From Escherichia phage vB_EcoM_VR25: DNA of 64,000 nucleotides. Below the pieces are notes generated by a model that saw only the letters and a program-made list of their open reading frames with translations, had not been told where the DNA came from and ran no database searches. The position numbers and the translations under genes are program-made. Positions 28,290-53,839 of this stretch are shown piece by piece; the first letter of the stretch is position 1, and every line of letters starts with the position of its first letter. The DNA is taken from the sequence record NC_028925.1; one strand, given 5' to 3'.

Positions 28290-30132
<1,843 letters not shown>

Positions 30133-30136
<4 letters not shown>

Positions 30137-30669
30137 ACACCAAGCTCCTTATAAAGTTCTTCGCGACAAGTTTTCAGAATTTTACCAGTTTCATAAGCTG
30201 TGCTTTCAGAAACATCACCAAGTGCAGCGGCAGCTTGCATTTGGCCATGGCGTTTAGCAGCATATTCAAAACTTTTTACTAGCTCACGAATACGTTCTTT
30301 TTCATTGTATTCTTCAATAAATTCTGGATATTCCCAAACAGGTCGCATCATACGATACCACAGTTGGATGGTAATATAATTACTTCCATCCAGATTAATA
30401 ATTTGTGAAGGCTTAATAGCGCCAGGAGCATAAAAAGTTACCTGTCTTACTACATCAATACCATCCACAATAGCCCAAGCAAAATCGAAGGTGGCCTTCT
30501 TTTCAATTGGCGTGCTCGCACAAGACCCTAACTTTAAGAGCTTTTGTAATACAGGAGATTTAACTCCTGAAATGTACACAGGATTAGCTACAAAGCTGTT
30601 ATCACGTAATGACATAATAGTTTCCTCAAATATTTTATAATCCGTGGGAGCATTATACTCTGCTCCCAA
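30133..30669 (-). CDS. hypothetical protein
   Basis: 178 aa ORF; start may be internal (MSLRDN). Confidence 0.5.
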
Positions 30670-30681
30670 GAGTTTGTAAAC
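30646..30681 (-). promoter_or_regulatory. early promoter cassette with stem-loop enclosing the -10 box (PeSL-like)
   Basis: Minus strand GTTTAC-N18-TATAAT; inverted repeat gggagc/gctccc flanks the -10. Confidence 0.5.
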
Positions 30682-30780
30682 TACTTTCCAAAAAGACCAT
30701 CAATACACATGCTGAATACAATTCCAAAACAAAAGCATGCAAAACCCAATCTAAAAACATCCCACCCATCGATACAGGCT

Positions 30781-31074
30781 TCAATCATGACAACGCTCCT
30801 CTTTTAGTTCAGAACGATAATAACATAACATACCTTTTTGGTCATGTACATATCTTTTTACATCATTCATCCAAATCCGGAATTCTTGCGATGCTTCAAA
30901 AGGCATACCAACCCATGGTTGACCGTCAATTACCTTCACTTCCCATTGCTGACGGTATTCCATTAATGTCTGTGGCCAATTAGGATGAACTTGAATTGTG
31001 GGCTCCACAACGGGCTTCTGGGCGCATGAAACAAGTCCAATAGCCAAACATACTGCCATGATAGATTTCATCAT
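30781..31074 (-). CDS. o-spanin (outer-membrane lipoprotein spanin subunit)
   Basis: 97 aa; lipoprotein-type signal MMKSIMAVCLAIGLVSCAQ; immediately downstream of i-spanin-like gene with 4-nt overlap; T4 pseT.2-equivalent position. Confidence 0.6.
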   Translation of the reverse strand: MMKSIMAVCLAIGLVSCAQKPVVEPTIQVHPNWPQTLMEYRQQWEVKVIDGQPWVGMPFEASQEFRIWMNDVKRYVHDQKGMLCYYRSELKEERCHD

Positions 31075-31424
31075 TTGGTGAGCTCCTGGAAGTCCTGGGC
31101 GAACTTATCAAATGACTGGTTAATTTGTTTTTCAACTAATTTAGGCTTAGCTGCCACAACCTTAGTACGTTTTGCATCTGCACGAAGTTTATCATTTTCC
31201 TTCTGCAGAAGTTCAACATATTCCTGGCGCTCCTGGTCAAGGAGATTAATTTGATTGACCTGGTCTTTTATTGATTGCAGATTTTTCGCGTTATCTTCTG
31301 CAACTTTGGTGACCGCAGCCACCTCTGTCTTGAGATTATCCACTTTTGCTTTTAGATAGAAACCACTACCAGCAGTTACTACCAGGGCGAGCATAAGCCC
31401 CGCAGTGATATTACTTATTTGCAT
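31071..31424 (-). CDS. i-spanin (inner-membrane spanin subunit)
   Basis: 117 aa; N-terminal TM helix (ITAGLMLALVVTAGSGFYL) then coiled-coil-like periplasmic part; T4 pseT.3-equivalent position. Confidence 0.6.
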   Translation of the reverse strand: MQISNITAGLMLALVVTAGSGFYLKAKVDNLKTEVAAVTKVAEDNAKNLQSIKDQVNQINLLDQERQEYVELLQKENDKLRADAKRTKVVAAKPKLVEKQINQSFDKFAQDFQELTK

Positions 31425-31918
31425 AACTTGATGATTACCTCAACAATATCATCCTGGGATAAACCATTCAGGAGGATGTGATTTGTACTGTCAGATGCTG
31501 AAATGCGGAACTGATTACCAACTTCATCCGCCATATCATCCTGGGTTAACACTGGGTGCTTAATTCCCAGGCGGTGTTGAAGTGTCAGGGGTTCAACCAC
31601 AACATAACAAACACATCCATTGATATGCACATTAGGTTGGGTCTGATTGATGAACACTTCTGCATCATATTTAACCAAATGGTTCTTTAAGAAGTCAACC
31701 ATTTCAGGAACAGATTCATGAAGGGCTTCTTTCCGCTCTTCTGATTTCTTATTGCGATATTCCTTCTGTTTGGTCTTCAACTTATTATCAGACGCCAGTT
31801 TCTTTCTTAAGTCAGTAAGGAACCCAACATTTTTGGAACCTTTATAAACATAGATTCCGTCATGGCGGTCACCATATACATCAACAATCATATCATTTGA
31901 AATCAGTTGCATATTCAT
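31415..31918 (-). CDS. hypothetical protein at the T4 alc position (167 aa from MNMQLIS)
   Basis: ORF 31415..32017 with start probably at internal Met; size equals remembered T4 Alc (167 aa) but sequence identity not verifiable by eye. Confidence 0.45.
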   Translation of the reverse strand: MNMQLISNDMIVDVYGDRHDGIYVYKGSKNVGFLTDLRKKLASDNKLKTKQKEYRNKKSEERKEALHESVPEMVDFLKNHLVKYDAEVFINQTQPNVHINGCVCYVVVEPLTLQHRLGIKHPVLTQDDMADEVGNQFRISASDSTNHILLNGLSQDDIVEVIIKLCK

Positions 31919-31928
31919 AATATTTTCC

Positions 31929-32162
31929 TCAATAGCGGTTATAACCTCTAGGACCAAAAGAGTTTGCACCCAGGCGCTCATCTTTCTTTTTGGCTCTTGC
32001 TCTAAACCCAGAATCACCTGTTTGGTCTTTCAGTTCTTTTAACAATTTGGCCTTCAGGTCAGTAATGAAACCAATCCGGCGGTCTCCCTTGTAGACATAG
32101 ATTCCATCATTTCTGTCACCATATGCCTTTGTAACTCTGTCATTTGAAATTAAGTTTAACAT
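31929..32162 (-). CDS. short paralog of the N-terminal ~40 aa of the alc-position protein
   Basis: ORF 31929..32195; LISNDRVTKAYGDRNDGIYVYKGDRRIGFITDLKAKL aligns with LISNDMIVDVYGDRHDGIYVYKGSKNVGFLTDLRKKL of the next gene. Confidence 0.4.
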   Translation of the reverse strand: MLNLISNDRVTKAYGDRNDGIYVYKGDRRIGFITDLKAKLLKELKDQTGDSGFRARAKKKDERLGANSFGPRGYNRY

Positions 32163-32232
32163 GTTTTGGTCCTCATCAGTAGTTGATGGAACCATTATGT
32201 ATAGAAAGAAGGGGCTTGTACACCCCTTTTTA

Positions 32233-33369
32233 TTATTCAGGCATGATTACATCCGCTTGGTAGTCCGCTGGGATGTAAAGTTTATGATTTTTAAGGAAAA
32301 CATTATTGATTTGAGCGATAGTTTGCTCTGTTTCCTGGGGACGTTGATATGTGTTCATTAATACAGAGAACAAACCCGGATATGGTTTACACAGTTCTTG
32401 ACCTTTAATCGCAAACTCGCGTCGGTCTTTTCCTGCCAACTGTTTCTGGGCATCAAGCAACAGTCCCAGGGTATTGGACAGATAATCCAGATGGGTCAAA
32501 GTAAAGGCATTAACTTTTTCACGAGCATAATCATCGCCAGTAAACATGGCAATAACATCATCTGCACCGCCTGCAACAACAACTTCAAAAAGACGCTGGT
32601 TATTGTTAACAGAATCCTTTGTATGGTGTAAAGCACAATACCATTCTGTCTTAACTTTAAATTTGCGACCATCGACCAGCTCATAGACAAAGCCTTCAAT
32701 CTCTTTCATATCACGGACGTTTTCAATTGTAGCCGGGTCATATGCTTCAACCAGGAATGGACGAAGCGCTGCATCTTTAAACAAATCCTGATAAGGGATA
32801 TATTCACCAGTTTCATTATGGCGAACGTTCAGTAAAATCAGGTCACGTTCCTGGTAAGGCAAAACAATGCGGTTGGTTGGTGCAACATATTCCATATTGC
32901 ATGTATAACCAGCTTCAGTAATTTCAGTTACACGCTCACGGAAAGCTATACGGTGTTCTTGTTTGAATACCTGCAGGGCTTCTGCTGCCTGGGAGCTTTT
33001 GATTGACCCTTTGGATTTAAAAGCAATATTGGTCTGGTCCATATAAGTGGAGACAAGAGAGCCATCAGCCTTGGTCATGACCAGCGCAACTTCATCCATA
33101 TTGATATTCATGGTCAACGGATTTTCGCCCAAGTTAAAGAACTTTTCCATAGGACGAGCCGCAATACGAACTGGACCATCTGCATCCATTTCAAACATAA
33201 TGCCGCGACATTCAAGTGCATCATCAAGGAGCCAATCACTATAGGAAGCATAGTTATAGCTAAAGATACGGAACTTAGTTTCAAATGGAGAAACGAAATC
33301 AGTATAGAAAAACTTACCTTTTTCAGATTCAGCGCACAGCTTCATTAAGTTGTCATATAATTCAATCAT
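32233..33369 (-). CDS. rnlA: RNA ligase 1 (Rnl1)
   Basis: 378 aa; KxDG adenylation motif (MTKADGSL); size and synteny. Confidence 0.85.
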   Translation of the reverse strand: MIELYDNLMKLCAESEKGKFFYTDFVSPFETKFRIFSYNYASYSDWLLDDALECRGIMFEMDADGPVRIAARPMEKFFNLGENPLTMNINMDEVALVMTKADGSLVSTYMDQTNIAFKSKGSIKSSQAAEALQVFKQEHRIAFRERVTEITEAGYTCNMEYVAPTNRIVLPYQERDLILLNVRHNETGEYIPYQDLFKDAALRPFLVEAYDPATIENVRDMKEIEGFVYELVDGRKFKVKTEWYCALHHTKDSVNNNQRLFEVVVAGGADDVIAMFTGDDYAREKVNAFTLTHLDYLSNTLGLLLDAQKQLAGKDRREFAIKGQELCKPYPGLFSVLMNTYQRPQETEQTIAQINNVFLKNHKLYIPADYQADVIMPE

Positions 33370-33782
33370 TTCTTCACCTTATGTTGGTAGTTCCACGGGG
33401 GATTAAAAAGCTTTATGAACATCGGCTCTTCCAGAGACATAGTTTCGACTGACATCGTACCAAGCTCATTGGTCATTGACAGATTGAAACATTGTCGTGC
33501 ATAGAATACCACCTTTTTACCTGCTTGTAAAGCCTCATGAATCATCCGGGATTTGTTTGAATCACTCGTTTGTTCTATACGATTGATTGCAGTCCGGTAA
33601 TAATTGATTCGCTTCTTCAGGTTGTTCGTCTTACCAATATACACTAGTTCGTCGTCAACTGAAATAGCGTAGATAACATTTTTCTTGTTCGCGAGTGTAA
33701 GGGTAGGGATTTTACCATCGACTAACTCTAACTCCGCATATTTTATAAAACTGTATTCGTCAGCGATTTGTTTCATAGACAA
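33366..33782 (-). CDS. denA: endonuclease II (GIY-YIG family)
   Basis: 138 aa; GIY-YIG-like core VIYAISVDDELVYIGKT; position between rnlA and nrdB as in T4. Confidence 0.7.
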   Translation of the reverse strand: MSMKQIADEYSFIKYAELELVDGKIPTLTLANKKNVIYAISVDDELVYIGKTNNLKKRINYYRTAINRIEQTSDSNKSRMIHEALQAGKKVVFYARQCFNLSMTNELGTMSVETMSLEEPMFIKLFNPPWNYQHKVKK

Positions 33783-33785
33783 AAA

Positions 33786-33797
33786 GGGCCGAAGCCC
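33786..33797 (-). terminator. hairpin terminator after nrdB
   Basis: gggccgaagccc followed by TTTTTG on minus strand. Confidence 0.5.
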
Positions 33798-33802
33798 TTT
33801 CC

Positions 33803-34981
33803 TTATAGATATTTACGGAAACCAGCAAGAACATTCTCATCGACGTCATTGTCAATCTGGGCTACCAGGTAAGCGGACAACTCAACTTCTTGTGGCGCAG
33901 ATTGCACATTATCAGAATTGAGATATTCGCGAATCCATGGAATCGGGTGCTTAGTAGATTCTAACACGATTTCACAAGGGAGACCGCATTGCTTCATACG
34001 AGAAACTGTCAGGTAATCGATGAACCGGTTAAGAATCTCGACGCTCAGCCCGGGGAGTCCACCATCTTTAAACAGATGCACAGCCCATTCTTTTTCCTGG
34101 CGATTGACTTCCATGAAAATAGCTGCGGCTTCTGCTTCACATTCTTGAGCGATTTTAACCCATTCATCACCGTCAACACCAGTCTGCAGCTGACGAAGAA
34201 TATATTGGGTCCCCTTAAGGTGAAGCTGTTCATCACGGGCGATGAACTTCATTATCTTCGCATTGCCTTCCATGATTTCCATGTTCTTATGGAAGTTGAA
34301 AGTACAAGCAAAAGATACATAAAAACGAATTGCTTCCAGGGCGTTAATGACATGCAGGCAGAGATAAAGAGATTTCATCAATGCTCGTTTGGCAATAGCT
34401 TCTTGTTTGATAGCTCGTTCCAAACGTTGGTCCACTTCGGGAGTTTCTTTGGCCAGTTCAACAAAAGCAATCTGGTTTTGCCATTGACGAGTTTTATTCA
34501 GAACATCATCATAGTAATAGCCAATTGATTCGGCTCGCTTCATGATTGCATCATCTAACAGGATTTCGTCGAATACCTTCGCCGGGTCTGTATAGAGATT
34601 TCGCATGATGTGTGTATAAGAACGAGAGTGAATTGTCTCGCTGAATGTCCAGGTCTGAATCCATGTATCAAGACTCGGGTCAGAAACTAATGCGGCTAAT
34701 GCTGCAGCTGGAGCACGACCCTGGATACTATCCAGAAGTGATTGGTACTTCAGGTTATTGGTAAAAATATTTTGTTGATGTTCAGGAAGCTTATTAAATT
34801 GAGCTCCGTCCATCATCAAGTTTACTTCCTCGGGCCGCCAGAAAAATGATAATTGCTTTTCTGTTAATTCTTCAAAAACTTTATGACGCTGGATATCATA
34901 ACGAGCGATGCCCAATCCTGAACCAAAAAACATCGGCTCGGCTAAAACATCCACCGGAGTGGTATTAAAAACTGTACTCAT
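33803..34981 (-). CDS. nrdB: ribonucleotide reductase small subunit (class Ia, R2)
   Basis: 392 aa uninterrupted ORF; ferritin-like R2 fold elements; synteny with nrdA. Confidence 0.9.
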   Translation of the reverse strand: MSTVFNTTPVDVLAEPMFFGSGLGIARYDIQRHKVFEELTEKQLSFFWRPEEVNLMMDGAQFNKLPEHQQNIFTNNLKYQSLLDSIQGRAPAAALAALVSDPSLDTWIQTWTFSETIHSRSYTHIMRNLYTDPAKVFDEILLDDAIMKRAESIGYYYDDVLNKTRQWQNQIAFVELAKETPEVDQRLERAIKQEAIAKRALMKSLYLCLHVINALEAIRFYVSFACTFNFHKNMEIMEGNAKIMKFIARDEQLHLKGTQYILRQLQTGVDGDEWVKIAQECEAEAAAIFMEVNRQEKEWAVHLFKDGGLPGLSVEILNRFIDYLTVSRMKQCGLPCEIVLESTKHPIPWIREYLNSDNVQSAPQEVELSAYLVAQIDNDVDENVLAGFRKYL

Positions 34982-35019
34982 TTTATTTCCTCAATAGCTC
35001 ATCCATGAGCATAATTATA

Positions 35020-37275
35020 TCAAAGTTTACAGGCGGAGCAGTCTTCTGCTTTAGGAGCTTCGATTTCGTAATCGTCTGTTCCGGAACCGTCTCTAGTGTT
35101 ATGATAATAAAGGTTTTTTCCACCAAAATACCAGAAGTACATCAAGTCGTCAAGCATAACTGACATCGGAACTTTTCCTTTCGGAAAAATCTGCGGGTCA
35201 TAGTATGTGTTTGCTGAAGCTGATTGACATACCCATTTCAACATAATAGCTACCATCGTAAGATAAGGTTTATTACCTTTCTTAGCTAGCACCCATGCAT
35301 AATCGTACAACCCTATGTTGTGCTCAATATTGGGCACGACTTGATTAAAGGAACCCTCTTTTGACTCTTTAATAGAGACTGGTCCACGCGGAGGTTCGAT
35401 ACCGTTTGTACTGTTAGAAACTTGGGAAGATGACTCACACGGCATAAGTGCTGATAATGTGCTATTACGGATGCCGTGTGCAACCAGGTCTTCCCGCAAC
35501 TGCGCCCAGTCACAAACGTAGTTTGGAGCTGCGATTTGGTCAATCTTTTTATTGTACCAGTCGATAGGTAATTCGCCTCGAGCCCAACGAGTGTCTGAAT
35601 AATATTCGCAAGGTCCTTTTTCTTTGGCGAGCTTGATTGATGCTCGGATAAGGCCATATTGTAATCTCTCAAATAATTCATGGGTTAAATCGTTTGCATC
35701 AGCGTAAGAAGCGAAATTGCTTGCCAGCCATGCAGCATAGTTAGTAACCCCAACACCCAGGTTGCGACGCTTTTTGGCTTTCAGAGCTTCTTTAACCGGA
35801 TAACCCTGGTAGTCCAACAGATTATCAAGAGCACGAACTTGAACTTCGGCCAGCTCGTTAATCTTATCTTGGTCCTGCCAGTCAAAACTATCCAGAACAA
35901 ATGCAGACAATGTGCACAATCCGATTTCAGCGTCTTCGCTGTTTACATCAGTAGTCGGGATTGCAATTTCACAACAAAGGTTCGATTGGCGAATCGGAGC
36001 CTTATCGCGGATGAACGGAGTATAGTCATTCACGTTATCAACGAACTGTGGATAAACTCGGGCAGTGCCGGAACGTTCGGTCATGAATAATTCGAACAGG
36101 TCTTTTGCTTTGATGCGCTTCTTACGAACTGTCGGGTCTTTTTCCAAGGCTTCGTATAACTCACGGAATTTATCCGGGTTATCAAAATATGAATAATACA
36201 ATTCACCACCGGCTTCGTGTGGACTAAACAGAGTGATGTAATCATTCTTAGCCAGTCGTTCCATCATCAGGTTATTAAGCTGGACACCATAGTCCATATG
36301 TCTGATACGGTTTTCTTCAACGCCCTTGTTGTTCTTCAGAACGAGTAAATTTTCAACTTCCAAATGCCATAAAGGATAATAAGCAGTAGCAGCGCCGCCA
36401 CGGATTCCACCTTGTGAACAGGATTTAACAGCCGTTTGGAAATGTTTCCAGAACGGAATAACACCAGTATGGCGAACTTCACCCATACCGATTTTCGAAC
36501 CTTCAGCACGAATCATACCAACGTTGATGCCGATACCCGCACGCTTACTGATATATTCGATGATTGAATTGGCCGTCTTATTAATTGACTTCAGGGAGTC
36601 AGCAGCTTCGATAACCACACAGGAACTGAACTGCCTGGTAGGTGTTCTGGCGCCCGCCATGATGGGCGTGGGCAACGAAACCTGTCTTGTGGATACTGCA
36701 TCATAAAAACGGCAAACGTGCTTCAGACGGTCCGTTGGTTCATCCTGGTGCAGTGCCATGCCGATAGCCATGATAGCGAATTGTGGAGTCTCGTAGATTT
36801 TCCCAGTGGTTTTATCTTTAACCAGGTATTTCTCTTTCAACTGCATCGCGCCTGCATAAGTCAGGTCAAAATCACGTTCGTGCTTGATACGAGATTCCAG
36901 ATAAGTAATCTCTTCGGCAGAATAGCTTGATAACAGTTCCGGGTCATATTTGCCTTCATTAACACAATAAGAAATCTGGTCAATAAAAGAACGTGGCTCG
37001 AACTGGCCATAGACATCTTTACGCAGAGCAAACATCGTAGCTTTAGCCGCAACATATTGGTAATCTGGTTCTTCAACCGAGATAAGTCCAGCAGACACTT
37101 TGATGATAACCGTCTGAATATCGCGAGTAGTCATACCATCGCGCAGATGTGGTTTGATTGTTTCGTATAATTCATACGGGTCGATATTAGTTCCTTCACA
37201 TGACCAGGAAAGAACTTTAATAATTTTCTGGCCATCAAAATCTTGAGATACGCCACTACTTTTTTGTACTTGCAT
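35020..37275 (-). CDS. nrdA: ribonucleotide reductase large subunit (class Ia, R1)
   Basis: 751 aa; N-terminal ATP-cone-like region, C-terminal Cys pair (...CSACKL); synteny. Confidence 0.9.
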   Translation of the reverse strand: MQVQKSSGVSQDFDGQKIIKVLSWSCEGTNIDPYELYETIKPHLRDGMTTRDIQTVIIKVSAGLISVEEPDYQYVAAKATMFALRKDVYGQFEPRSFIDQISYCVNEGKYDPELLSSYSAEEITYLESRIKHERDFDLTYAGAMQLKEKYLVKDKTTGKIYETPQFAIMAIGMALHQDEPTDRLKHVCRFYDAVSTRQVSLPTPIMAGARTPTRQFSSCVVIEAADSLKSINKTANSIIEYISKRAGIGINVGMIRAEGSKIGMGEVRHTGVIPFWKHFQTAVKSCSQGGIRGGAATAYYPLWHLEVENLLVLKNNKGVEENRIRHMDYGVQLNNLMMERLAKNDYITLFSPHEAGGELYYSYFDNPDKFRELYEALEKDPTVRKKRIKAKDLFELFMTERSGTARVYPQFVDNVNDYTPFIRDKAPIRQSNLCCEIAIPTTDVNSEDAEIGLCTLSAFVLDSFDWQDQDKINELAEVQVRALDNLLDYQGYPVKEALKAKKRRNLGVGVTNYAAWLASNFASYADANDLTHELFERLQYGLIRASIKLAKEKGPCEYYSDTRWARGELPIDWYNKKIDQIAAPNYVCDWAQLREDLVAHGIRNSTLSALMPCESSSQVSNSTNGIEPPRGPVSIKESKEGSFNQVVPNIEHNIGLYDYAWVLAKKGNKPYLTMVAIMLKWVCQSASANTYYDPQIFPKGKVPMSVMLDDLMYFWYFGGKNLYYHNTRDGSGTDDYEIEAPKAEDCSACKL

Positions 37276-37295
37276 GTTTTCCTCTGTTATAAAAT

Positions 37296-37346
37296 GGGGT
37301 CATGCTTATACTAACACATGACCCCTGGAGCGGAATCGTATTTATA
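37296..37346 (-). promoter_or_regulatory. TATAAATA box plus stem-loop upstream of nrdA
   Basis: Minus strand TATAAATA at 37339..37346; inverted repeat ggggtcatg/catgacccc at 37296..37325. Confidence 0.35.
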
Positions 37347-37406
37347 GAAGGAAGTTAAGTCCGACCATTACGACCAAAAATAAAATGCCAGCAATTTGAA
37401 TTTTCA

Positions 37407-39065
<1,659 letters not shown>

Positions 39066-39069
<4 letters not shown>

Positions 39070-39407
39070 TTTAATTCCTTAACTGCCTTTTTGATGGCAG
39101 TAAAATCTTTGCGAATATCGAGAACCAATTTGTAAAGATGTTTAATTGTATCTGTATCAAAATATGATACCGCGCAACGTGATTGGCGAATATCTTCTAA
39201 TGAATACTTGCTTTCACTTGTGCCATATCCAATGATACCACTAATGCACTTGTCATTAAGCGTATACTTCTGGGGGACATCAATAATATTTTTAGGATAG
39301 ATGTAAAGGCTCCAATCAAATTTTTGTTCAAGCGTATTAACCTTAACTTCAAGAATCAGTTCAGGATGCGCATCATCTTTAGCAAAACAAGTGTATTCAG
39401 CAAGCAT
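39066..39407 (-). CDS. hypothetical protein
   Basis: Start chosen at MLAEYTCF within ORF 39066..39644; the N-terminal 78 aa of the listed ORF overlap the next gene in another frame and look spurious. Confidence 0.45.
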
Positions 39408-39417
39408 TATATTTTCC

Positions 39418-39657
39418 TCACGCTTTCTTAGCGATTTTCCAGTCAGCTTTAAATTGGTCAACATCAGAGTGGTGAATCCAGAAACCAGATGAGCTACCAT
39501 CTTCATAAAGAGGACAACCATCACACTCATCTTTCCAACCCATTGCACACAAAGTTTCTTCTGCTTTTTCCAGAGCTTCAGGATTGTTACCTTGGATTGT
39601 GAAGTACCATTTGCCTTTAACTTCTGAATCTTTGATGCTCTCACGTTTTAATTTCAT
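39418..39657 (-). CDS. hypothetical protein
   Basis: 79 aa ORF with Cys/Trp-rich composition. Confidence 0.45.
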   Translation of the reverse strand: MKLKRESIKDSEVKGKWYFTIQGNNPEALEKAEETLCAMGWKDECDGCPLYEDGSSSGFWIHHSDVDQFKADWKIAKKA

Positions 39658-39716
39658 TTTATTCTCCTCAAGTTGATAAGGCTATAGTATCACTACCATA
39701 GCCCTGTTGTAAACAT

Positions 39717-39962
39717 TTATTTTTGAATTAAGCCCATATAAAATTCAGCATCTTCAACATGCATACCATCGCAATACTCGTCAGTCATAAAACGAGTAAG
39801 GTCTTCAAGAGGACCTTGGACTTCAATTTGGATACTGAAGAATTGAGTATCTTTGATGTAAGTCATACTCAAAGAAGGATAACGATTACGGATAACTTCA
39901 TAAGTGTATTCAAAATCAACGATATCAATATTAACTTTAGCCATTTTATTTTCCTCACTCAT
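39717..39962 (-). CDS. hypothetical protein
   Basis: 81 aa ORF preceded by promoter cassette. Confidence 0.5.
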
Positions 39963-40012
39963 TAGTTGATAGGTCTATAGTATCTCAACCATAGACATTG
40001 TACACTACTTTT

Positions 40013-40279
40013 TTAAATTTTATCAAGCCATTTGCCAAGTTTGGTCATTTCTTTAGTAGCTTTTTCCAGACTTCTGAACTTGACTAACAAAGGATAAGTA
40101 TCTACACCCATAACTAAAGTGGTTACAAGACTATGCTCGCCTACAAGCCATAGAGAATACGTTTGAACATCAAGTCCGTAATTTCGGTCTTTATGAACAC
40201 GTACACCCATCACTTCAAACTGTTCGCTGGCTTTTTCTACTGCATCCAGGAAATCATCTTTAGTCATATTAAATTCCAA
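40013..40279 (-). CDS. hypothetical protein
   Basis: 88 aa ORF preceded by promoter cassette. Confidence 0.5.
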   Translation of the reverse strand: MEFNMTKDDFLDAVEKASEQFEVMGVRVHKDRNYGLDVQTYSLWLVGEHSLVTTLVMGVDTYPLLVKFRSLEKATKEMTKLGKWLDKI

Positions 40280-40634
40280 AGGTAGCTTTAATCAGGGCAA
40301 TGACTTCAGCAGCATTTTTGTGATTGACTTGCACATGAATGGTTTGCGTGTCAACAACAGGAGCATCACCATCAACTTCCAGGAAGTGGCGGAATTCCCA
40401 TTCAGCGAGTTCAAAGTACTCATCAGCATCATCCATACTATCCAAGATGGTACCATCTTTCATTTCAACTTTTTCAACAAAATAATCGCCATCAATAAAG
40501 CACATATCCAGGACTTTGAAGGAACTGCCATGCTGTCCCATCAGCTTGACCATGCGCGAATTGTCATCAGGACTACCAGCGATGAATTGTTTTTTGGCAG
40601 CAGGGTCTAATACGTAAAATTTACCAGTTTCCAT
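40269..40634 (-). CDS. hypothetical protein (paralog family with 40700..40957 and 26868..27410)
   Basis: 121 aa; shared motifs GKFY..AKKQFIAG and GSSFKVL. Confidence 0.5.
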   Translation of the reverse strand: METGKFYVLDPAAKKQFIAGSPDDNSRMVKLMGQHGSSFKVLDMCFIDGDYFVEKVEMKDGTILDSMDDADEYFELAEWEFRHFLEVDGDAPVVDTQTIHVQVNHKNAAEVIALIKATFGI

Positions 40635-40699
40635 TTTAATTTCCTCATATTCAATTGAGGGAACATACTATCATGTTCCCATTTGTTTGTATACTACTA

Positions 40700-40957
40700 T
40701 TATACTTCGCTAAAGAATTTAAATTCGCTATCCAGAATTTCAAAACAGTTCACACCAAAATCATCACTTGATGCGATTACACCGTTAGGAAATTCAACGC
40801 AATCAACAATCAGCGTATCCATAAACTTGTTAATGCTCAGGACTTTAAAGGAACCGCCATTCTTGTTAATCAGATTAACCATATCACAATTCTTTGCATC
40901 TTCGCGCTTGTATTCGTTAATCAGATTGTTCAGAGTGTAAGTTTTAAAAGTTTGCAT
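40700..40957 (-). CDS. hypothetical protein (paralog of 40269..40634)
   Basis: 85 aa; GGSFKVL…NGVI aligns with GSSFKVL…DGTI. Confidence 0.5.
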   Translation of the reverse strand: MQTFKTYTLNNLINEYKREDAKNCDMVNLINKNGGSFKVLSINKFMDTLIVDCVEFPNGVIASSDDFGVNCFEILDSEFKFFSEV

Positions 40958-41044
40958 TTCATATCCTTTAGTGTATCAGCAGTTGATGGAATCATTATGC
41001 CTTAGCTCAAAGGACTTGTACACTACTTTTTGAAAATAAAAAAG

Positions 41045-41060
41045 GGACCCGAAGGTCCCC
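41045..41060 (-). terminator. hairpin terminator after gene 32
   Basis: gggacc ttcg ggtccc followed by TTTTTTATTTT on minus strand. Confidence 0.7.
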
Positions 41061-41065
41061 TTATA

Positions 41066-41977
41066 TTAAAGGCCAGCCAGAAGGTCGTCAAGACCATCAT
41101 CAGAAGGCTCTGGAGTGCTTGGAGCAGTCGCAGTGCGTTCAGACTTAGCAGGTTTACTGGAAGTGAAGTCTTCCATATCTTTATCAAAATCGTCCAGGTC
41201 AGCGCCCAGTTTATCAGCTTGTGCAGCAGCTTTAGAAGCAGCACCGCCGAGAGCAGCTGTACCCATTACTTTAGAGAATTTCTTCTGATTCTCTTCAAGG
41301 GATTTAAACACCAGCAATTCGTTCAGGTCAGACATTTCGTCCCAAAGTTTTTTCTGGAATGCTTCATCATTGATGCCAGCGATTTCAGACTGGTTCATGA
41401 ATTTGGAATCATCGTAGTTTTTATAACCGGAAACCATTTTAGATTTCAGTACGAAGTTCGCACCTTCAAAAGGACAAGTTACATCAATAGCTGTTTCGCC
41501 CATGTCAACATCGACTTCAACCATCTGGTTGATTTTGTCCATGATTTTCTTACCGAAGCGGTATTTGAATACTTGGCCTTCGTTAGATGGAACAGCAGGG
41601 TCTTTAATGACCAGGATGTTAGCCCAGTAAGAAGTATTACGCTTCAGTTTACGATATTCGGATTCGTTTGTATTGTACAGGTCATTCTTATTCATGTACG
41701 CACACACAGGACAGTTTTCATAGTCGCCGTGAGTAGAAGTACAGTTTTCAATATACCATTGACCAGCATTTTTAAAGCCGTGGTTAACCAACTTAATGAA
41801 CGGAGATGGATTTTCTTCATTCTTAGAAGGCAGGAAACGAATAACCGCAGAGCCGACGCCATCAGTATCTTTCAGTTTCCATTCTTTTTTATCGTCAGAA
41901 GAGAAACCAGAACCACCTTTCAGAGCATTCAGGGAAGCGGCGAGGTCAGCTGGGTTTTTACGTTTAAACATAGACAT
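41066..41977 (-). CDS. 32: single-stranded DNA-binding protein gp32
   Basis: 303 aa; matches remembered T4 gp32 along whole length (MFKRK…[10 protein letters not shown]…LVNHGFK…YWANILV…[11 protein letters not shown]…acidic C-terminal tail). Confidence 0.95.
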
Positions 41978-42036
41978 AGTGATTTCCTTTGATTATTTGA
42001 TTTTAACAGTTGTTTTGATTACGTATTAATTATACT

Positions 42037-42705
42037 TCAGAGTGATTGAAGCGTTATTTGACAGTTTTTAACCGTCTCAATGAAAAGCTTACGAGCTTCA
42101 AGAGCATCTATATTTAAGATTTTCTTATAAGCATTTAGTTTGGTTGAATACTTGTCCCAAACCAAATCGTTAGTCTGTTCATCATGTTTATTTATTATAT
42201 GCAAAAATGAGTCAAGCAAACAAAACGTTTCAAATGAGATAACATTCGATTGGAGAAGTTTGAAAATATAACTCGTGTTCACTTTAGTATTATACTCGAA
42301 AATCTCTTGAAGCGATTTGACTTCAACTTTCTTACTAAAGTAATAGATGTTCTTTATATCATCTTCGTATACTTGTTTAATTCTTTTAAGTCTGCCGATG
42401 TATTCCCTATAAAATATCAGAGCATCGGCATCACTTATATCACCTATCCATGCATCCTGGTTCGCGACCAGGTTTGACATGAATATTAACGTTAATTCTT
42501 TGAGAGTATACTTATCGCTAAGCTTTTCGAAAAAATACTTATCGCGGCGTTTTTGATAAGCACTATCGGAGATTCGCATGGTCCAGTTATATTTGATAAT
42601 ATCATAACGACCCGAAAAATGCTGTTTGATGGATAAGTACAGTTGATATACTGATTTACCATTTATGTATCGGTTGTTATTTGGAGGCATGCGAATCGTA
42701 ATCAT
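42037..42705 (-). CDS. 59: gp59 helicase-loading protein
   Basis: 222 aa; size and position between 32 and 33. Confidence 0.8.
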   Translation of the reverse strand: MITIRMPPNNNRYINGKSVYQLYLSIKQHFSGRYDIIKYNWTMRISDSAYQKRRDKYFFEKLSDKYTLKELTLIFMSNLVANQDAWIGDISDADALIFYREYIGRLKRIKQVYEDDIKNIYYFSKKVEVKSLQEIFEYNTKVNTSYIFKLLQSNVISFETFCLLDSFLHIINKHDEQTNDLVWDKYSTKLNAYKKILNIDALEARKLFIETVKNCQITLQSL

Positions 42706-42995
42706 AACAAAAAGTCCAGCGTATTAGTTTTCTGTGTACGAGACATACTCGGACGAAGCAGGTTATCATCATATGCTTCGTTCATAATCTTATCAATGAT
42801 TCCCGCGGGAATGTATCGCGCAAAATTACCCTCAGGAACGCCACGTTCTTCTAACCAGGCAGTCGTAGCTTCCAGATAAGACATTTCAGTTGACTCAACC
42901 ATGGCTTCAATATCAAGCCCGTTTTGCTGCTTACTAATCGCCCCGGAAGGCGATTCAGTTTTCTGTGTATCAAAATTAACTAAAGAGGACATCAT
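42702..42995 (-). CDS. 33: gp33 late-transcription co-activator
   Basis: ORF 42702..43091 with probable internal start (~97 aa); position between 59 and dsbA. Confidence 0.55.
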   Translation of the reverse strand: MMSSLVNFDTQKTESPSGAISKQQNGLDIEAMVESTEMSYLEATTAWLEERGVPEGNFARYIPAGIIDKIMNEAYDDNLLRPSMSRTQKTNTLDFLL

Positions 42996-43245
42996 AGAGC
43001 TCCACAGCTTCGGTTTTTTCATCTTCAAAACGCTCACGAGTACCTTTATGATACAAGCCGAGCTGTGTATTGAACATCTTACCGTCAACACCTAATTCAG
43101 TTTTTGCCTTATCTTTAAGGTCTTTAATTTCGTCCGCGTATGCTTCCATTTTTAATTTAGTATCGGAAGCAGCTTTAATCAGCTTGGCCAGTTCAGCACC
43201 GTGAGTATCAGGACAAAATTCAACTTTCACTTTTTTCTCTTTCAT
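42976..43245 (-). CDS. dsbA: DsbA double-stranded DNA-binding protein
   Basis: 89 aa Lys/Glu-rich ORF; same size and position as T4 DsbA. Confidence 0.6.
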   Translation of the reverse strand: MKEKKVKVEFCPDTHGAELAKLIKAASDTKLKMEAYADEIKDLKDKAKTELGVDGKMFNTQLGLYHKGTRERFEDEKTEAVELYDVLFS

Positions 43246-43253
43246 AATATACC

Positions 43254-44198
43254 TTAATAAAATTCAGCAATATTTGCAGTTAGTTTAGACAGACCAGACT
43301 TAACAAAGTAAGGATAAACTTTACTTTTGGCTGGAATAGTGTAGTTATTATATCGTTCTAAGATTGAAGCGGATATTTCCGTTGGGATAAAGTCCATATC
43401 AATCAACAATTGGTTTTCACAGAATCTATTATATTGCTCTTCTGTTAAAAGCGTTTTCAGGACGTCATGGTCGTAATAGTTGAGCGCAATTTGTTCAAGC
43501 TCAGCAGCACGGGTCGGTGGAGTACGTTCCCCTTCTTCGTGAGTGTAATAAAAATCACCACGAACTTTGATGCTTGACACGTTATCTTTTTTGTCGCCTT
43601 TAACAACTTTTGTTACGCAATCCATAAGGGCATCGCCAGATTTTGTTTTTACATATTTTTTCTGCATCGGGGACCATTGTTTTACCCCAGGGAATTTATG
43701 CAACTGGGTAAAGTCACCATCCGAAGAAACAATCATAACCGGATGTCCGAGACCGGTGAGCAACTTCGTTAATACTGCAATATGGTCGTCTGCCTCAACT
43801 TTATCCATATTCATCACGATGTAAGGCATGTATTTTTCCATTTCATCAATGATGATGTGCATGGCAGCATGTAGACCTTCCCAATCGAATTGAGACTCTT
43901 CACGAGCTTTCGCACGGTTTTTCTTATAATAATAAGATTTCGTCCGGCGCCAATAACCATTCTTCGAGTTATCAACACAAATAATTGGAATCGTATAACC
44001 GAGCTTCTTGAACTGCACAATATTTTTTCTGATGGAGTTCAGAACCAGGTGGCGGGTCATTGCGGTTGTTACCTTTGGATAACCAGCGTCTTTGCCGAAT
44101 TCCTGGAATGCCGCAGCCATGATTAGCTGACTAAAATCGAGTAACTGAAAACCTTCTTTTTGACGGTCTTCTTCAGGGAGTAAAAAATCTAAATTCAT
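43254..44198 (-). CDS. rnh: RNase H (5'-3' exonuclease / flap endonuclease)
   Basis: 314 aa; FEN-family acidic clusters (e.g. VEADDHIAV, SSDGDF); synteny before gene 34. Confidence 0.85.
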   Translation of the reverse strand: MNLDFLLPEEDRQKEGFQLLDFSQLIMAAAFQEFGKDAGYPKVTTAMTRHLVLNSIRKNIVQFKKLGYTIPIICVDNSKNGYWRRTKSYYYKKNRAKAREESQFDWEGLHAAMHIIIDEMEKYMPYIVMNMDKVEADDHIAVLTKLLTGLGHPVMIVSSDGDFTQLHKFPGVKQWSPMQKKYVKTKSGDALMDCVTKVVKGDKKDNVSSIKVRGDFYYTHEEGERTPPTRAAELEQIALNYYDHDVLKTLLTEEQYNRFCENQLLIDMDFIPTEISASILERYNNYTIPAKSKVYPYFVKSGLSKLTANIAEFY

Positions 44199-50062: not shown

Positions 50063-53000
50063 ATGGCTACTTTAAAAGCGATACAATTTAAAAGAAGTAA
50101 GACAGCTGGTGCCAAGCCTACTGTAGACCAGTTGGTTGAAGGTGAACTGGCTATTAACTTACGCGACCGCACGATTTATACCAAAACCGACCAGAACCAG
50201 ATTATCGACCTTGGATTTGCTAAAGGTGGTCAGGTTGATGGTGATATTCTCCAGAACGGCACATTTAACCTCAATGGTAATATGTTCGTTTACGCTGGTA
50301 AGTATATTGAATTCCTGCCTAAAACTGCCGGTAATGGCGCATGGTCCAACCAGCACTTGAATAAAGCTCCTATCTTTGCAGATTTAAGTTCAACTACCTC
50401 AGTATCAGAATACCATCCTCTGATTAAGCAACGTTATAAAGACGGTACTTTTTCTGCCGGTACATTAGTAAATGAAGGTAGTTTTAAATTCCATTATATT
50501 GATGAAACTGGTCAATCTAAATATTGGACATTTGCGCGCTCAGGTAATTTTCAAGTTGATTCTGGTAATTTATTAGTATCTGGTGGGTATTTAGTCGCTC
50601 AGAATAATATTGAAACAAGAACAGGTTCTTTGATTGGTCCATCTGTTGTAACTAAAAATATTTCATTTGATACAAAAGCGTTCGGACAATACGATTCGCA
50701 GTCATTAGTTCAATATGTTTATCCTGGAACAGGTGAAGAAAATGGTATAAACTATCTTCGTAAAGTTCGAGCTAAATCAGGTGGAACCATTTACCATGAA
50801 ATCGCTTCAGCTCAAACTGGTAAGAATGATGAAATTTCTTGGTGGAATGGAAATACACCTACTACTAAATTAATGGGTCTTCGTAATGATGGCGCCATGG
50901 TATTACGTCGTTCACTTGCTATTGGCACAATTACTGCTGACGAAAATACTAACAACTACGGCTCTCCTACTCCATTGGGAGAAAGATATATTGCTTTGGG
51001 CGATGCTGCCACTGGTTTAAAATACATTAAGCAGGGCGTTTATGATTTAGTAGGTAATTGGAATTCTGTCGCATCTATTACACCTGACAGTTTCCGCAGT
51101 ACTCGCAAAGGTTTATTTGGACGTTCAGAAGACCAAGGCACTACATGGATTATGCCTGGAATCAACGCCGCTCTTTTATCAGTCCAAACTCAGGCTGATG
51201 TGAATAACGCAGGTGATGGTCAGACGCATATTGGCTATAACTCTGGTGGAAAAATGTCACATTATTTCCGCGGTAAAGGTCAAACGAATATTAACACTCA
51301 AGAAGGCATGGAACTTAATCCAGGTATTCTTAAACTGGTAACCGGTGCAAATAATGTACAATTTTATGCTGACGGCACTATTTCTTCTATCCAACCTGTT
51401 AAATTAGACAACGAATTATTTTTAAATAGTTCTAATAATACTGCAGGCCTTAAACTTGGTGCCCCTAGCAAAGTTGATGGCTCGAGAACTATCCAGTGGA
51501 ACGCCGGGACCCGTGCAGGACAAAATAAAAGTTATCTGACTATGAAAGCTTGGGGTAATGCATTCGACTCCACTGCCGGCGAACGCGAAACTGTATTTGA
51601 ATTGTATGACGGCCAGGGCTATCATTTTTATTCTCAACGTTTAGCTCCGACGGGTTCTGAAACTGTCGGTACTCTTCAATTCAGAATTTCTGGCGCTTTA
51701 CGTGTAGGTGGCGGTATTATATCGGCAGGTTCTATTGTTACTGAATCAAGTTTAGTTGCAAATAATGGATTATCTGTAAACGGACAAGCTAAATTCGGTG
51801 GAACAGCAGATGCATTAAGAATTTGGAATGCTGAATACGGTGCTATTTTCCGTCGTTCAGAAGCAGCATTGCATATTATTCCAACTCCTAAAGACGCTGG
51901 TGAAAGCGGTGGAATAAGTAATCTCCGTCCATTAAGTATCAGCCTTAATAATGGTATGGTGCAAATGCGACATTCTGTTACGTTAGGCGATGATGGAGCT
52001 GGCGGTAATATGATTACTGTGGACAATGACGGTAAACTTGTTGTTGTTACGAGTCATAGTCGCATTTCTCCTAATTATAATATGCAATTAGGACAAAATG
52101 CTTATATAGATATTGAGGCTACTGAAGGTGCACGCCCGGCGGGTTGGGGTTCATTTGCATCTCAGAACGATGCAAATGTCAGGGCTCCGATTTATATGAA
52201 TATAGACCGTGCCGCTACTTCTGAATATCTCCCTATTATCAAACAACGTTACGTACAGGGCGATAGTACTTATTCTATGGGCACCTTAATTTCTCGAGGA
52301 GACTTCCGCATCCATTATCACCAAGGTAATAGTACTACCGGCACTGATTTAAGCTGGGAATTCCGCCGCGACGGTGATTTCCGCGCTTCGGGTAAAATTA
52401 TTGCCGGTTCTGTTACTCTTGACCATGATGGTAACATCACAGGTGGTTCTGGTAATTTTGCTAACTTGAACAGTACAATTGAATCACTTAAAACCGATAT
52501 TGTATCAAGCTATCCAATTGGTGCTCCTATTCCATGGCCAACAGATACTCCTCCTGCGGGTTATGCTTTAATGACGGGTCAGCCCTTTGACAAGAGCACA
52601 TATCCCAAGCTTGCCGTTGCTTATCCATCAGGTACTATTCCGGATATGCGTGGACAAACTATTAAGGGTAAACCGAGTGGTCGTGCCGTGCTGAGTGCGG
52701 AAGCTGATGGTATTAAGTCTCATAATCATAGTGCTTCTGCATCTAATACTGATTTGGGTACTAAAACCACATCAAGCTTTGATTATGGTACTAAAACCAC
52801 ATCAAGCTTTGATTATGGTACTAAGACCAGTAATACCACTGGTAACCATAACCATACAGTAAGTGGAACTACTGCCGCTGCAGGTAACCACCAACACGCG
52901 CGTTCAGGTCCTCAGGTACAAGGCGGCATACCCACTAGCGTATTCTATGACGGATACAATACTGTAGGTCCAAACGGCAACGCTAAATTCACTGCAACCG

Positions 53001-53266
53001 TGAGCGGTGCTACTGCATCGTCGAATATGGCCAAAACATCAACAGAAGGTAACCATACTCATACTTGGTCAGGTACTACTAGCGCTACGGGTAACCATGC
53101 TCATACTGTAGGTATCGGTGCTCACACTCACACTGTAGGTATCGGTGCCCACTCGCATTCAGTAGCGATTGGTTCGCACGGACATACTATCACTGTAAAT
53201 AGTACAGGTAATACAGAAAACACGGTTAAAAACATTGCTTTTAACTATATCGTTCGTTTAGCATAA
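50063..53266 (+). CDS. 37: long tail fibre distal subunit gp37 (receptor-binding tip with His-x-His repeats)
   Basis: 1067 aa; C-terminal GNHNHT/GNHTHT/GAHTHT/GSHGHT motifs and ending ...[11 protein letters not shown] as remembered for T4 gp37. Confidence 0.9.
52757..52828 (+). repeat. perfect 30-bp in-frame tandem duplication inside gene 37 ([10 protein letters not shown] x2 plus partial third)
   Basis: ggtactaaaaccacatcaagctttgattat occurs twice consecutively, followed by ggtactaagacc. Confidence 0.85.
53105..53158 (+). repeat. 27-bp near-perfect tandem repeat in gene 37 His-x-His region ([19 protein letters not shown])
   Basis: actgtaggtatcggtgctcacactcac / actgtaggtatcggtgcccactcgcat. 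Confidence 0.8.
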
Positions 53267-53270
53267 GGAG

Positions 53271-53286
53271 AGGGGCTTCGGCCCCT
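53271..53286 (+). promoter_or_regulatory. stem-loop between Shine-Dalgarno-like AGGAG and the gene 38 start codon (split ribosome-binding site)
   Basis: aggggc ttcg gcccct hairpin lies between aaggag (53265..53270) and ATG (53294). Confidence 0.5.
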
Positions 53287-53293
53287 TCTGAAT

Positions 53294-53839
53294 ATGAAAA
53301 TTTATCACTTTTATTTTGACACGAAAGAATTTTACAAAGAAGAAAATTACAAACCGGTTAAAGGCCTTGGTCTTCCGGCTCACTCGACATCTAAAAAACC
53401 TTTAGAACCTAAAGAAGGATACGCGGTTGTATTTGATGAACGTAAACAAGATTGGATTTATGAAGAAGACCATCGCGGCAAACGAGCATGGACTTTTAAT
53501 AAAGAAGAAATCTTAATAAATGATATCGGAAGTTTAATAGGGGTTACTTTTGACGAGCCTGGTGAGTTTGATTTATGGACAGACGATGGTTGGAAAGAAG
53601 ACGAGACGTATAAACGAGTAATGATTCGTAATCAAAAAATTGACGATTTGTATAAAGAATTCCAGGTATTAAGTAATATGGTTGAAGCCTCTGTTGCTGA
53701 TAAGAAAGAAAAATTCTATCACCAGAATCTTAAACGTTTCTTTGCTCTTTTAGAAAAACACGAACACTTAGGTGGTGAATTTCCGGCTTGGCCAGAGAAA
53801 GAGAAAAAATCCTTTTTCAAAAGATTGTTTAAAAAATAA
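53294..53839 (+). CDS. 38: gp38 tail-fibre assembly chaperone (T4 type)
   Basis: 181 aa; near-identical to remembered T4 gp38 N-terminus (MKIYH.YFDTKEFYKEENYKPVKGLGLPAHST.KKPLEPKEGYAVVFDER). Confidence 0.9.
   Translation: MKIYHFYFDTKEFYKEENYKPVKGLGLPAHSTSKKPLEPKEGYAVVFDERKQDWIYEEDHRGKRAWTFNKEEILINDIGSLIGVTFDEPGEFDLWTDDGWKEDETYKRVMIRNQKIDDLYKEFQVLSNMVEASVADKKEKFYHQNLKRFFALLEKHEHLGGEFPAWPEKEKKSFFKRLFKK

Follow-up and report, generated by a model that had tools for sequence, protein, structure and literature searches.

The 64,000-nucleotide stretch of Escherichia phage vB_EcoM_VR25 (VR25, NC_028925.1) analyzed here, called the window below, carries gene 37, the product of which (gp37) is the distal subunit of the long tail fiber and contains, in its C-terminal part, the two in-frame tandem repeats that are the subject of this work. 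Comparison of the VR25 protein with the full T4 protein gave an identity of 58% across the full length, and the C-terminal 267 residues matched the T4 needle structure 2XGF in the Protein Data Bank (PDB) with E = 9.8e-87 in phmmer (query residues 1-267 aligned with chain residues 13-242), the entire collar, stem and tip fragment being covered. Judged by these matches, the gene 37 product is a member of the T4 gp37-type family of receptor-binding needles with the 2XGF fold. The features of the region are collected in Table 1.

Table 1. Features in and next to gene 37 of VR25 (positions in the window; TRF, Tandem Repeats Finder; HxH, histidine-any residue-histidine motif).
Feature	Position	Strand	Remark
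Gene 37, long tail fiber distal subunit, 1067 aa	50063..53266	+	Open reading frame; T4 type with built-in adhesin
Collar (knob, D10) domain core, residues 820-867	52520..52663	+	Pfam PF07484 Collar, E = 4.1e-11
H1, first HxH (HNH, residues 887-889), base of ascending stem strand	52721..52729	+	Aligns with T4 H883/H885
Decamer 1, ascending stem strand	52757..52786	+	1 nt different from the single copy of T4
Decamer 2, the unit that T4 lacks	52787..52816	+	DNA identical to decamer 1
Degenerate third decamer, running into H2	52817..52846	+	Codon reading; TRF, 2.7 copies
H2 (HNH, residues 929-931) and H3 (HQH, residues 943-945), distal ascending metal sites	52847..52897	+	
Variable region H3-H4, residues 946-997, with TuIb/Ge15-type receptor-binding tip	52898..53053	+	
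H4 (HTH, residues 998-1000), first descending HxH	53054..53062	+	Approximate right-hand mosaic junction relative to VR7
B1-B4, four tandem 9-residue HxH units, descending strand	53096..53203	+	Codon reading; T4 has three
Nonamer B1	53096..53122	+	HxH phase
Nonamer B2, HTHTVGIGA	53123..53149	+	4 nt differences from B1
Nonamer B3, HSHSVAIGS	53150..53176	+	HxH phase
Nonamer B4, HGHTITVNS	53177..53203	+	HxH phase
Gene 38, T4-type tail-fiber assembly chaperone, 181 aa	53294..53839	+	87% identity to T4 gp38, E = 1e-122
GGGGC-TTCG-GCCCC hairpin, after the stop codon of gene 37 and before the start of gene 38	53273..53286	+	Fold of -15.6 kcal/mol for 53262-53300

Tandem Repeats Finder reported two arrays, both in frame within the gene 37 reading frame, one at 52750-52829 (period 30, 2.7 copies, score 139) and the other at 53100-53152 (period 27, 2.0 copies, 92% matches, score 92). 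Read by codons, the first consists of two units that are each GGT ACT AAA ACC ACA TCA AGC TTT GAT TAT, with 0 differences between them, followed by a degenerate third; a perfect 30-bp tandem pair of this kind within 64 kb cannot have originated by chance. The second array is part of the run of four nine-residue units B1-B4. Both the perfect 30-bp pair at 52757-52816 and a 27-bp pair with 4 mismatches had been described in an earlier note on this DNA, and both are borne out by the repeat search and the codon reading; the coordinates 53105-53158 given there for the 27-bp pair are those of the B-unit array read in a different phase.

The note had further proposed that VR25 carries extra HxH motifs relative to T4, and the alignment agrees. 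VR25 gp37 has 8 (residues 887, 929, 943, 998, 1012, 1021, 1030 and 1039) against 7 in T4, with spacings of 42, 14, 55, 14, 9, 9 and 9 residues as compared with 32, 14, 37, 14, 9 and 9, so that the repeat counts of the two proteins are not identical. Aligned with T4 (both 2XGF and the full protein), VR25 leaves exactly one 10-residue and one 9-residue gap in T4, located at the positions of the repeats, and the nonamer additional to T4 is B1 or B2. The spacing of 14 residues between H2 and H3 is kept across the family.

The distribution of this layout indicates that VR25 carries an old and common allele of the type found in phage TuIb rather than an expansion in its own lineage. Dozens of phage records align over the 804-nt C-terminal region without a gap, and 117 records cover at least 80% of it. 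The gp37 gene of TuIb, deposited in 1990 (X55191; Montag, Hashemolhosseini and Henning 1990), encodes the same decamer pair and the same four nonamers in the same [42,14,55,14,9,9,9] architecture with the same type of tip, and its gapless alignment with VR25 over the 804 nt has an identity of 83%. VR25 gp37 has the features of a TuIb-type allele throughout, namely a pair of decamers, a terminal run of four nonamers and, over the 55 residues from H3 to H4, a tip of the ARSGPQ...FYDGYN type. The two-decamer layout with 8 HxH motifs was found in TuIb, Ge15, VR7, mogra and 14 further T4-like phages that were sampled, the genera represented being Tequatrovirus, Mosigvirus, Dhakavirus and Gaprivervirus, and many tail fibers of E. 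coli and Shigella prophages also have the two-decamer architecture. In the literature, the HxH repeats of T4-like gp37 C-termini are given as seven to nine in number (Korf et al. 2019, PMC6563267), and the T4/lambda family of receptor-binding proteins is reported to include more than 200 phages, TuIb among them (Magaziner and Salmond 2022, PMC9659904). The suggestion of a new expansion fails on these records, as TuIb, VR7, Ge15 and more than 100 T4-like records already have the layout.

Divergence between the decamer copies also speaks for the age of the duplication. The decamers of TuIb specify one and the same peptide, and the 8 of 30 nt that distinguish them are all synonymous, whereas those of VR25 are identical in DNA. 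The copies are 3-13 nt apart with 0-4 amino-acid differences in 30 other two-decamer loci, 6-8 nt apart in 45 IMG/VR loci that encode the VR25 decamer peptide twice, and 3-8 nt apart in 15 two-copy T4-like phages. Because the copies elsewhere have diverged at mostly synonymous sites, the duplication is old. The B1 and B2 nonamers of VR25 are identical in DNA to those of Ge15, and the 4-nt difference between them is ordinary.

Why the decamer pair of an old duplication should be perfect in VR25 is answered by comparison with its close relatives. Phage Ge15 (PP359696), a Tequatrovirus and hence different in backbone from VR25, has decamer 1 and all four nonamers as in VR25; its decamer 2 is GTKTSSSFDY (ACA TCT). 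Of the 567 positions from 52700 to the stop codon only 9 distinguish VR25 from Ge15, and three of these (52798, 52799 and 52801) lie within a span of 4 nt in decamer 2. At these sites Ge15, O157 typing phage 3 (O157tp3), 04086 and DCP80 all read ACA TCT where VR25 reads ACC ACA, and since the four relatives share the other state, that of VR25 is derived. The three changes, which include a serine to threonine replacement, make copy 2 equal to copy 1 located 30 nt upstream. Three changes in 4 nt, all toward the paralogue and in a stretch that is otherwise ~99% identical, point to a short gene-conversion tract, and recent short gene conversion probably best explains the perfect 30-bp pair, the mechanism being inferred from this pattern. 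The exact 60-mer of the pair had no match in the phage collection and none in IMG/VR.

Two other phages with the two-decamer, four-nonamer stem have a perfect 30-bp pair of their own. In VR7 (locus L085, 9140-9199), the closest whole-genome relative of VR25 at 97.9%, the unit GGT ACT AAG ACC ACC TCA TCA TTT GAT TAT occurs twice and is 5 nt different from that of VR25; in ESCO10 (L140), the unit GGT ACT AAA AAC ACC TCA TCA TTT GAT TAT occurs twice, the copies sharing one amino-acid change (GTKNTSSFDY twice). The tips of both differ from that of VR25, with H3-H4 spacings of 37 and 56 residues, respectively. Copies that are identical within a genome and different between genomes are the mark of concerted evolution, and the three pairs indicate that homogenization of the decamers has probably happened several times in lytic T4-like phages. 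In prophage-type loci the decamer copies remain 6-13 nt apart. As for the nonamers, the first two are only 1-2 nt apart in some lytic phages (vB_EQ1, L143; JK45, L142) and 5-12 nt apart in prophage-type loci. In lytic phages, partial homogenization may extend to the 27-bp units.

The numbers of the two units are coupled across the family. Coupling was measured by setting the H1-H2 spacing against a count of the 9-residue spacings that separate the last HxH motifs (trailing spacings), using a collar-anchored parser on 195 distinct C-terminal domains from two protein searches and fetched loci. An H1-H2 spacing of 32 residues goes with 2 trailing spacings in 87 distinct domains, 42 with 3 in 97, 41 with 3 in two, 52 with 4 in six and 73 with 6 in one. 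The number of decamers on the strand going up and of HxH nonamers on the strand going down agree in 194 of the 195 domains, which have from 3 to 7 trailing HxH motifs, and the relation can be written as H1-H2 = about 12 + 10n, n (2 to 6) being the count of trailing spacings. The domain P0219 parses as 78/1 solely through loss of H2 and is otherwise of the 32/2 type, and P0159, which is outside the set of that parser, conforms with a spacing of 62 and five trailing spacings. All of the T4-like phages sampled (20/20) fit the rule. Five tip families (at least 55% identity) are each found in more than one stem state, from which it follows that the coupling has outlasted repeated changes. The two repeats thus appear to be one coupled module and not two independent events; as to the idea in the earlier note that they vary the length of the tip, unit numbers do vary, but as a single module of the stem.

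A natural example of such a change is provided by phages PhiZZ23 (L144; spacing 32; 9,9) and JK45 (spacing 42; 9,9,9), which over the 420 aligned nt between the first indel and the stop codon show no more than 2 substitutions (~99.5% identical) and are set apart by exactly two in-frame indels, one of 30 bp and one of 27 bp. The two were isolated from different hosts and in different countries. Directly before the decamer indel lies a short divergent patch that points to recombination over simple slippage. Longer and shorter stems are also seen. P0159, which has four full decamers, a degenerate fifth and six terminal HxH motifs, and P0215, with a spacing of 73 and seven terminal HxH motifs, both have a much longer stem, and both obey the rule. 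A sub-class of prophage fibers (P0062, P0098, P0046 and similar) is without the H3/H4 pair and has spacings of 42, 34-42, 9, 9 and 9; in these proteins the HxH motifs number six, the distal stem is shorter, and the tip is placed straight after H2.

Gene 37 of VR25 is a mosaic. The VR25 backbone is nearest to that of vB_EcoM_VR7 (Gaprivervirus; 97.9% over 30000-44000), and the two phages are 96% identical up to 50241 and only 65-75% identical across most of gene 37 (50242-53054), after which 94% identity resumes at about 53054 and continues through genes 38 and t. The right-hand mosaic junction is near the H4 His box. The segment 52673-53270 has 95-100% nucleotide identity to Ge15, and this Ge15-like segment on a VR7-like backbone means that the adhesin end was swapped between genera, an exchange that is common in T4-like phages (PMC3157838; PMC6563267). 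The tip is of the TuIb/Ge15 type, ~75% identical to that of TuIb (by eye) and unrelated in sequence to that of T4; the H3-H4 length is 55 residues in VR25 and 37 in T4. The receptor of TuIb has been given as OmpC/LamB, an assignment that applies to TuIb itself only (PMC9659904).

A structural reading of the repeats can be taken from the geometry of the T4 needle. The T4 gp37 stem comprises residues 882-931 and 960-1009 and the tip residues 932-959, and the needle holds seven irons and has contacts between G921 and F970 and between G964 and H929 (Islam et al. 2019, PMC6957217). A homotrimer in which iron is octahedrally coordinated at every HxH layer is a hallmark of needles of this type. These contacts imply an antiparallel register in which i + j is about 1891-1893; the T4 numbering was checked, H929/H931, I933, G964 and F970 matching their published places. 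By this register, ascending residues 886-894 of T4 would face the descending HGH unit 998-1006, the decamer at 895-904 would face the HTH unit 989-997, and the degenerate decamer at 905-914 would face the HSH unit 980-988. Each descending HxH nonamer would then stand opposite one His-free ascending segment of ~10 residues, in agreement with the counting rule. In VR25 the repeats occupy residues 899-918 and 1012-1029 and the tip lies between 946 and 997. The earlier note had located the repeats in the receptor-binding tip; they are found in the needle stem instead, and if they influence host range they would do so indirectly, via reach or rigidity, because the repeats are outside the part that contacts the receptor.

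Taken together, these results lead us to propose, with a probability of roughly 0.78, that VR25 gp37 has one extra stem rung relative to T4 that belongs to an old TuIb-type allele, and that decamer 2 of this allele was recently converted. If the VR25 chain follows the order of T4, in which each chain runs up the stem, through the tip and back down, the extra decamer would lengthen the ascending strand of the stem and the extra nonamer, HxHTVGIGA, would lengthen the descending strand at matching height and supply an eighth HxH metal site, and presumably an eighth metal ion. Paired in the trimer, the two repeats would together add a single layer, a rung, to the stem beneath the tip, for a gain in stem length of roughly 2.5-3 nm. 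The two-decamer, four-nonamer form would have been inherited, or gained by tip-module exchange from a Ge15-like phage, after which decamer 1 would have overwritten decamer 2 via a short gene-conversion tract (52798, 52799, 52801) to yield the perfect 60-bp repeat; a like homogenization may have arisen independently in VR7 and ESCO10.

Several points weigh against this proposal. The strand pairing in VR25 is extrapolated from T4, the copy of the PDB that was searched contained no structure of a two-decamer trimer (the matches were 2XGF and an unrelated short fiber only), and the rung would add 10 residues on one strand and 9 on the other, a mismatch of one residue that the stem would have to absorb. 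The coupling has one true exception, L005 (IMGVR_UViG_3300030021_000020; 42/2), a metagenome contig with two decamers and three nonamers at locus positions of about 1200-1290. Its array resembles one of the TuIb type from which a single 27-bp unit, between direct repeats GGTGCTCATACCCA, has dropped out, and it is possible that the exception is an assembly error, the contig being metagenomic. Since the sequences share ancestry, the raw Fisher p of 1e-53 for the coupling makes them look more independent than they are. Neither the coupling rule nor concerted evolution of the decamers turned up in the accessible literature on gp37, and Bartual et al. (2010) may state the coupling. Lastly, the same pattern as that of conversion would result if one decamer had been lost and then duplicated anew, or from an error in the consensus or its polishing.

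A recent slippage, by which the VR25 lineage itself would have gone from one to two decamers and from three to four nonamers and acquired a longer needle than its ancestors had, would account for a decamer pair that is perfect at the DNA level and for T4 being one copy short of each unit, and the copy-number change between the near-identical PhiZZ23 and JK45 is real. We nevertheless regard it as very unlikely, for Ge15, O157tp3, 04086, DCP80 and the backbone relative VR7 all have two decamers and four nonamers, the nonamer pair is imperfect with 4 differences and identical to that of Ge15, and decamer 2 differs from that of Ge15 by three clustered nucleotides without an indel. The very recent slippage or recombination invoked in the earlier note thus survives only as a recent homogenization of decamer 2 of the recombination type; no new copy was made, and the duplication is old. 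It is less probable still that the identity of the decamers merely reflects a lack of divergence so far, or selection on codon usage. In most T4-like phages the protein sequence of the unit hardly varies, with 0-1 amino-acid differences, but copies elsewhere as a rule show 3-13 nt of synonymous divergence, the states at 52798, 52799 and 52801 are derived relative to four relatives and include the S to T change, and three phages have three distinct perfect pairs; of all the explanations considered, this one is the least likely.

An error of assembly or polishing across the near-identical repeat could have produced either the identity or the number of the decamers, as might be suspected from the restriction of the exact 60-mer to this record and from the rule-breaking L005, which is a metagenome assembly and comes from a kind of region that can be error-prone. 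The copy number agrees with more than 100 independent genomes and with the coupling rule, though, any current read is long enough to span the 60-bp array, and the separately sequenced VR7 and ESCO10 also show perfect pairs with sequences of their own, so an artefact seems highly improbable. Somewhat more credence, while still unlikely, may be given to a high-frequency switch, in which the repeats would act as a contingency locus that alters needle length, and thereby host range, within populations. The one-rung polymorphism between PhiZZ23 and JK45, the single-unit deletion allele L005 and the interaction between copies revealed by concerted evolution all fit a switch, as do the laboratory T4 host-range mutants with gp37 duplications reported by Tetart et al. 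(1996). Against it, the 30-bp unit is present in two copies only, a viable change appears to require two coordinated events, the repeats are in the stem and not in the tip that contacts the receptor, the mutations of Tetart et al. concern the tip region, the reported host-range substitution being G938V, and there is no sign of heterogeneity within populations.

Comparison with known systems places the VR25 needle among close counterparts. With the T4 gp37 needle (PDB 2XGF; Bartual et al. 2010) it shares the collar, the interwoven up-and-down HxH stem, the conserved C-terminus and the adjoining downstream gene 38; it differs in having one more ascending decamer, one more descending HxH nonamer and a longer H3-H4 region. 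The side tail fibers of the lambda Stf type and of other E. coli prophages end in the same needle at the C-terminus, where one to five decamers go with a matching set of nonamers, but differ in their N-terminal fiber parts, their chaperones and their long-diverged decamer copies (6-13 nt). The duplications obtained in T4 gp37 reportedly have their ends at His-box (GxHxH) motifs and span the recognition region. Like the repeats of VR25 they are in-frame and tandem and lie in the C-terminal adhesin region, but they arose in the laboratory under selection, whereas the VR25 repeats would be an inherited stem module outside the tip. A host-range duplication of that type was considered for VR25 and rejected, as its repeats exclude the tip and their copy number is common to all close relatives; a simple-sequence contingency locus (phase variation), in which many copies of a short unit vary often in number with effects on expression or reading frame, was likewise rejected, the locus having two in-frame 30-bp copies and four diverged 27-bp copies. 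A gp37 duplication that changes host range was already published in 1996 (Tetart, Repoila, Monod and Krisch 1996, J Mol Biol 258:726), the reported host-range substitution being G938V, in the tip.

VR25 gp37 is a normal TuIb-type allele on a VR7-like phage, an ordinary inherited feature, correctly observed in the first place, together with a small, recent and probable conversion event; variation in HxH number has already been published, and the coupling rule is a modest additional insight. The coupling, seen almost without exception in ~200 distinct needles and in the PhiZZ23/JK45 pair, amounts to a concrete rule by which a fiber is lengthened or shortened by both units together, of use in host-range engineering for instance. 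The concerted evolution of the decamers implies that a perfect repeat need not signal a new duplication, which calls for caution with tandem repeats in phage adhesins. More tentatively, and with odds that we put somewhat below even, the needles of gp37 and lambda Stf may be modular ladders that change in length only by a decamer and an HxH nonamer together, equal to one metal site, and in which the decamers have repeatedly been gene-converted in lytic T4-like phages. Were this true, not already published, and were rung number to affect reach, adsorption or host range, it would provide a design rule for fiber length, and PhiZZ23 and JK45 form a natural pair, one-rung versus two-rung, that is suited to the study of needle-length function.

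Downstream of gene 37, the chaperone gene 38 is followed by the holin gene t. The hairpin between genes 37 and 38 has a UUCG-type tetraloop and is without a T-run; a terminator scan made no call at 53273-53286, and the annotators of phage NBG1 label the equivalent site as a terminator.

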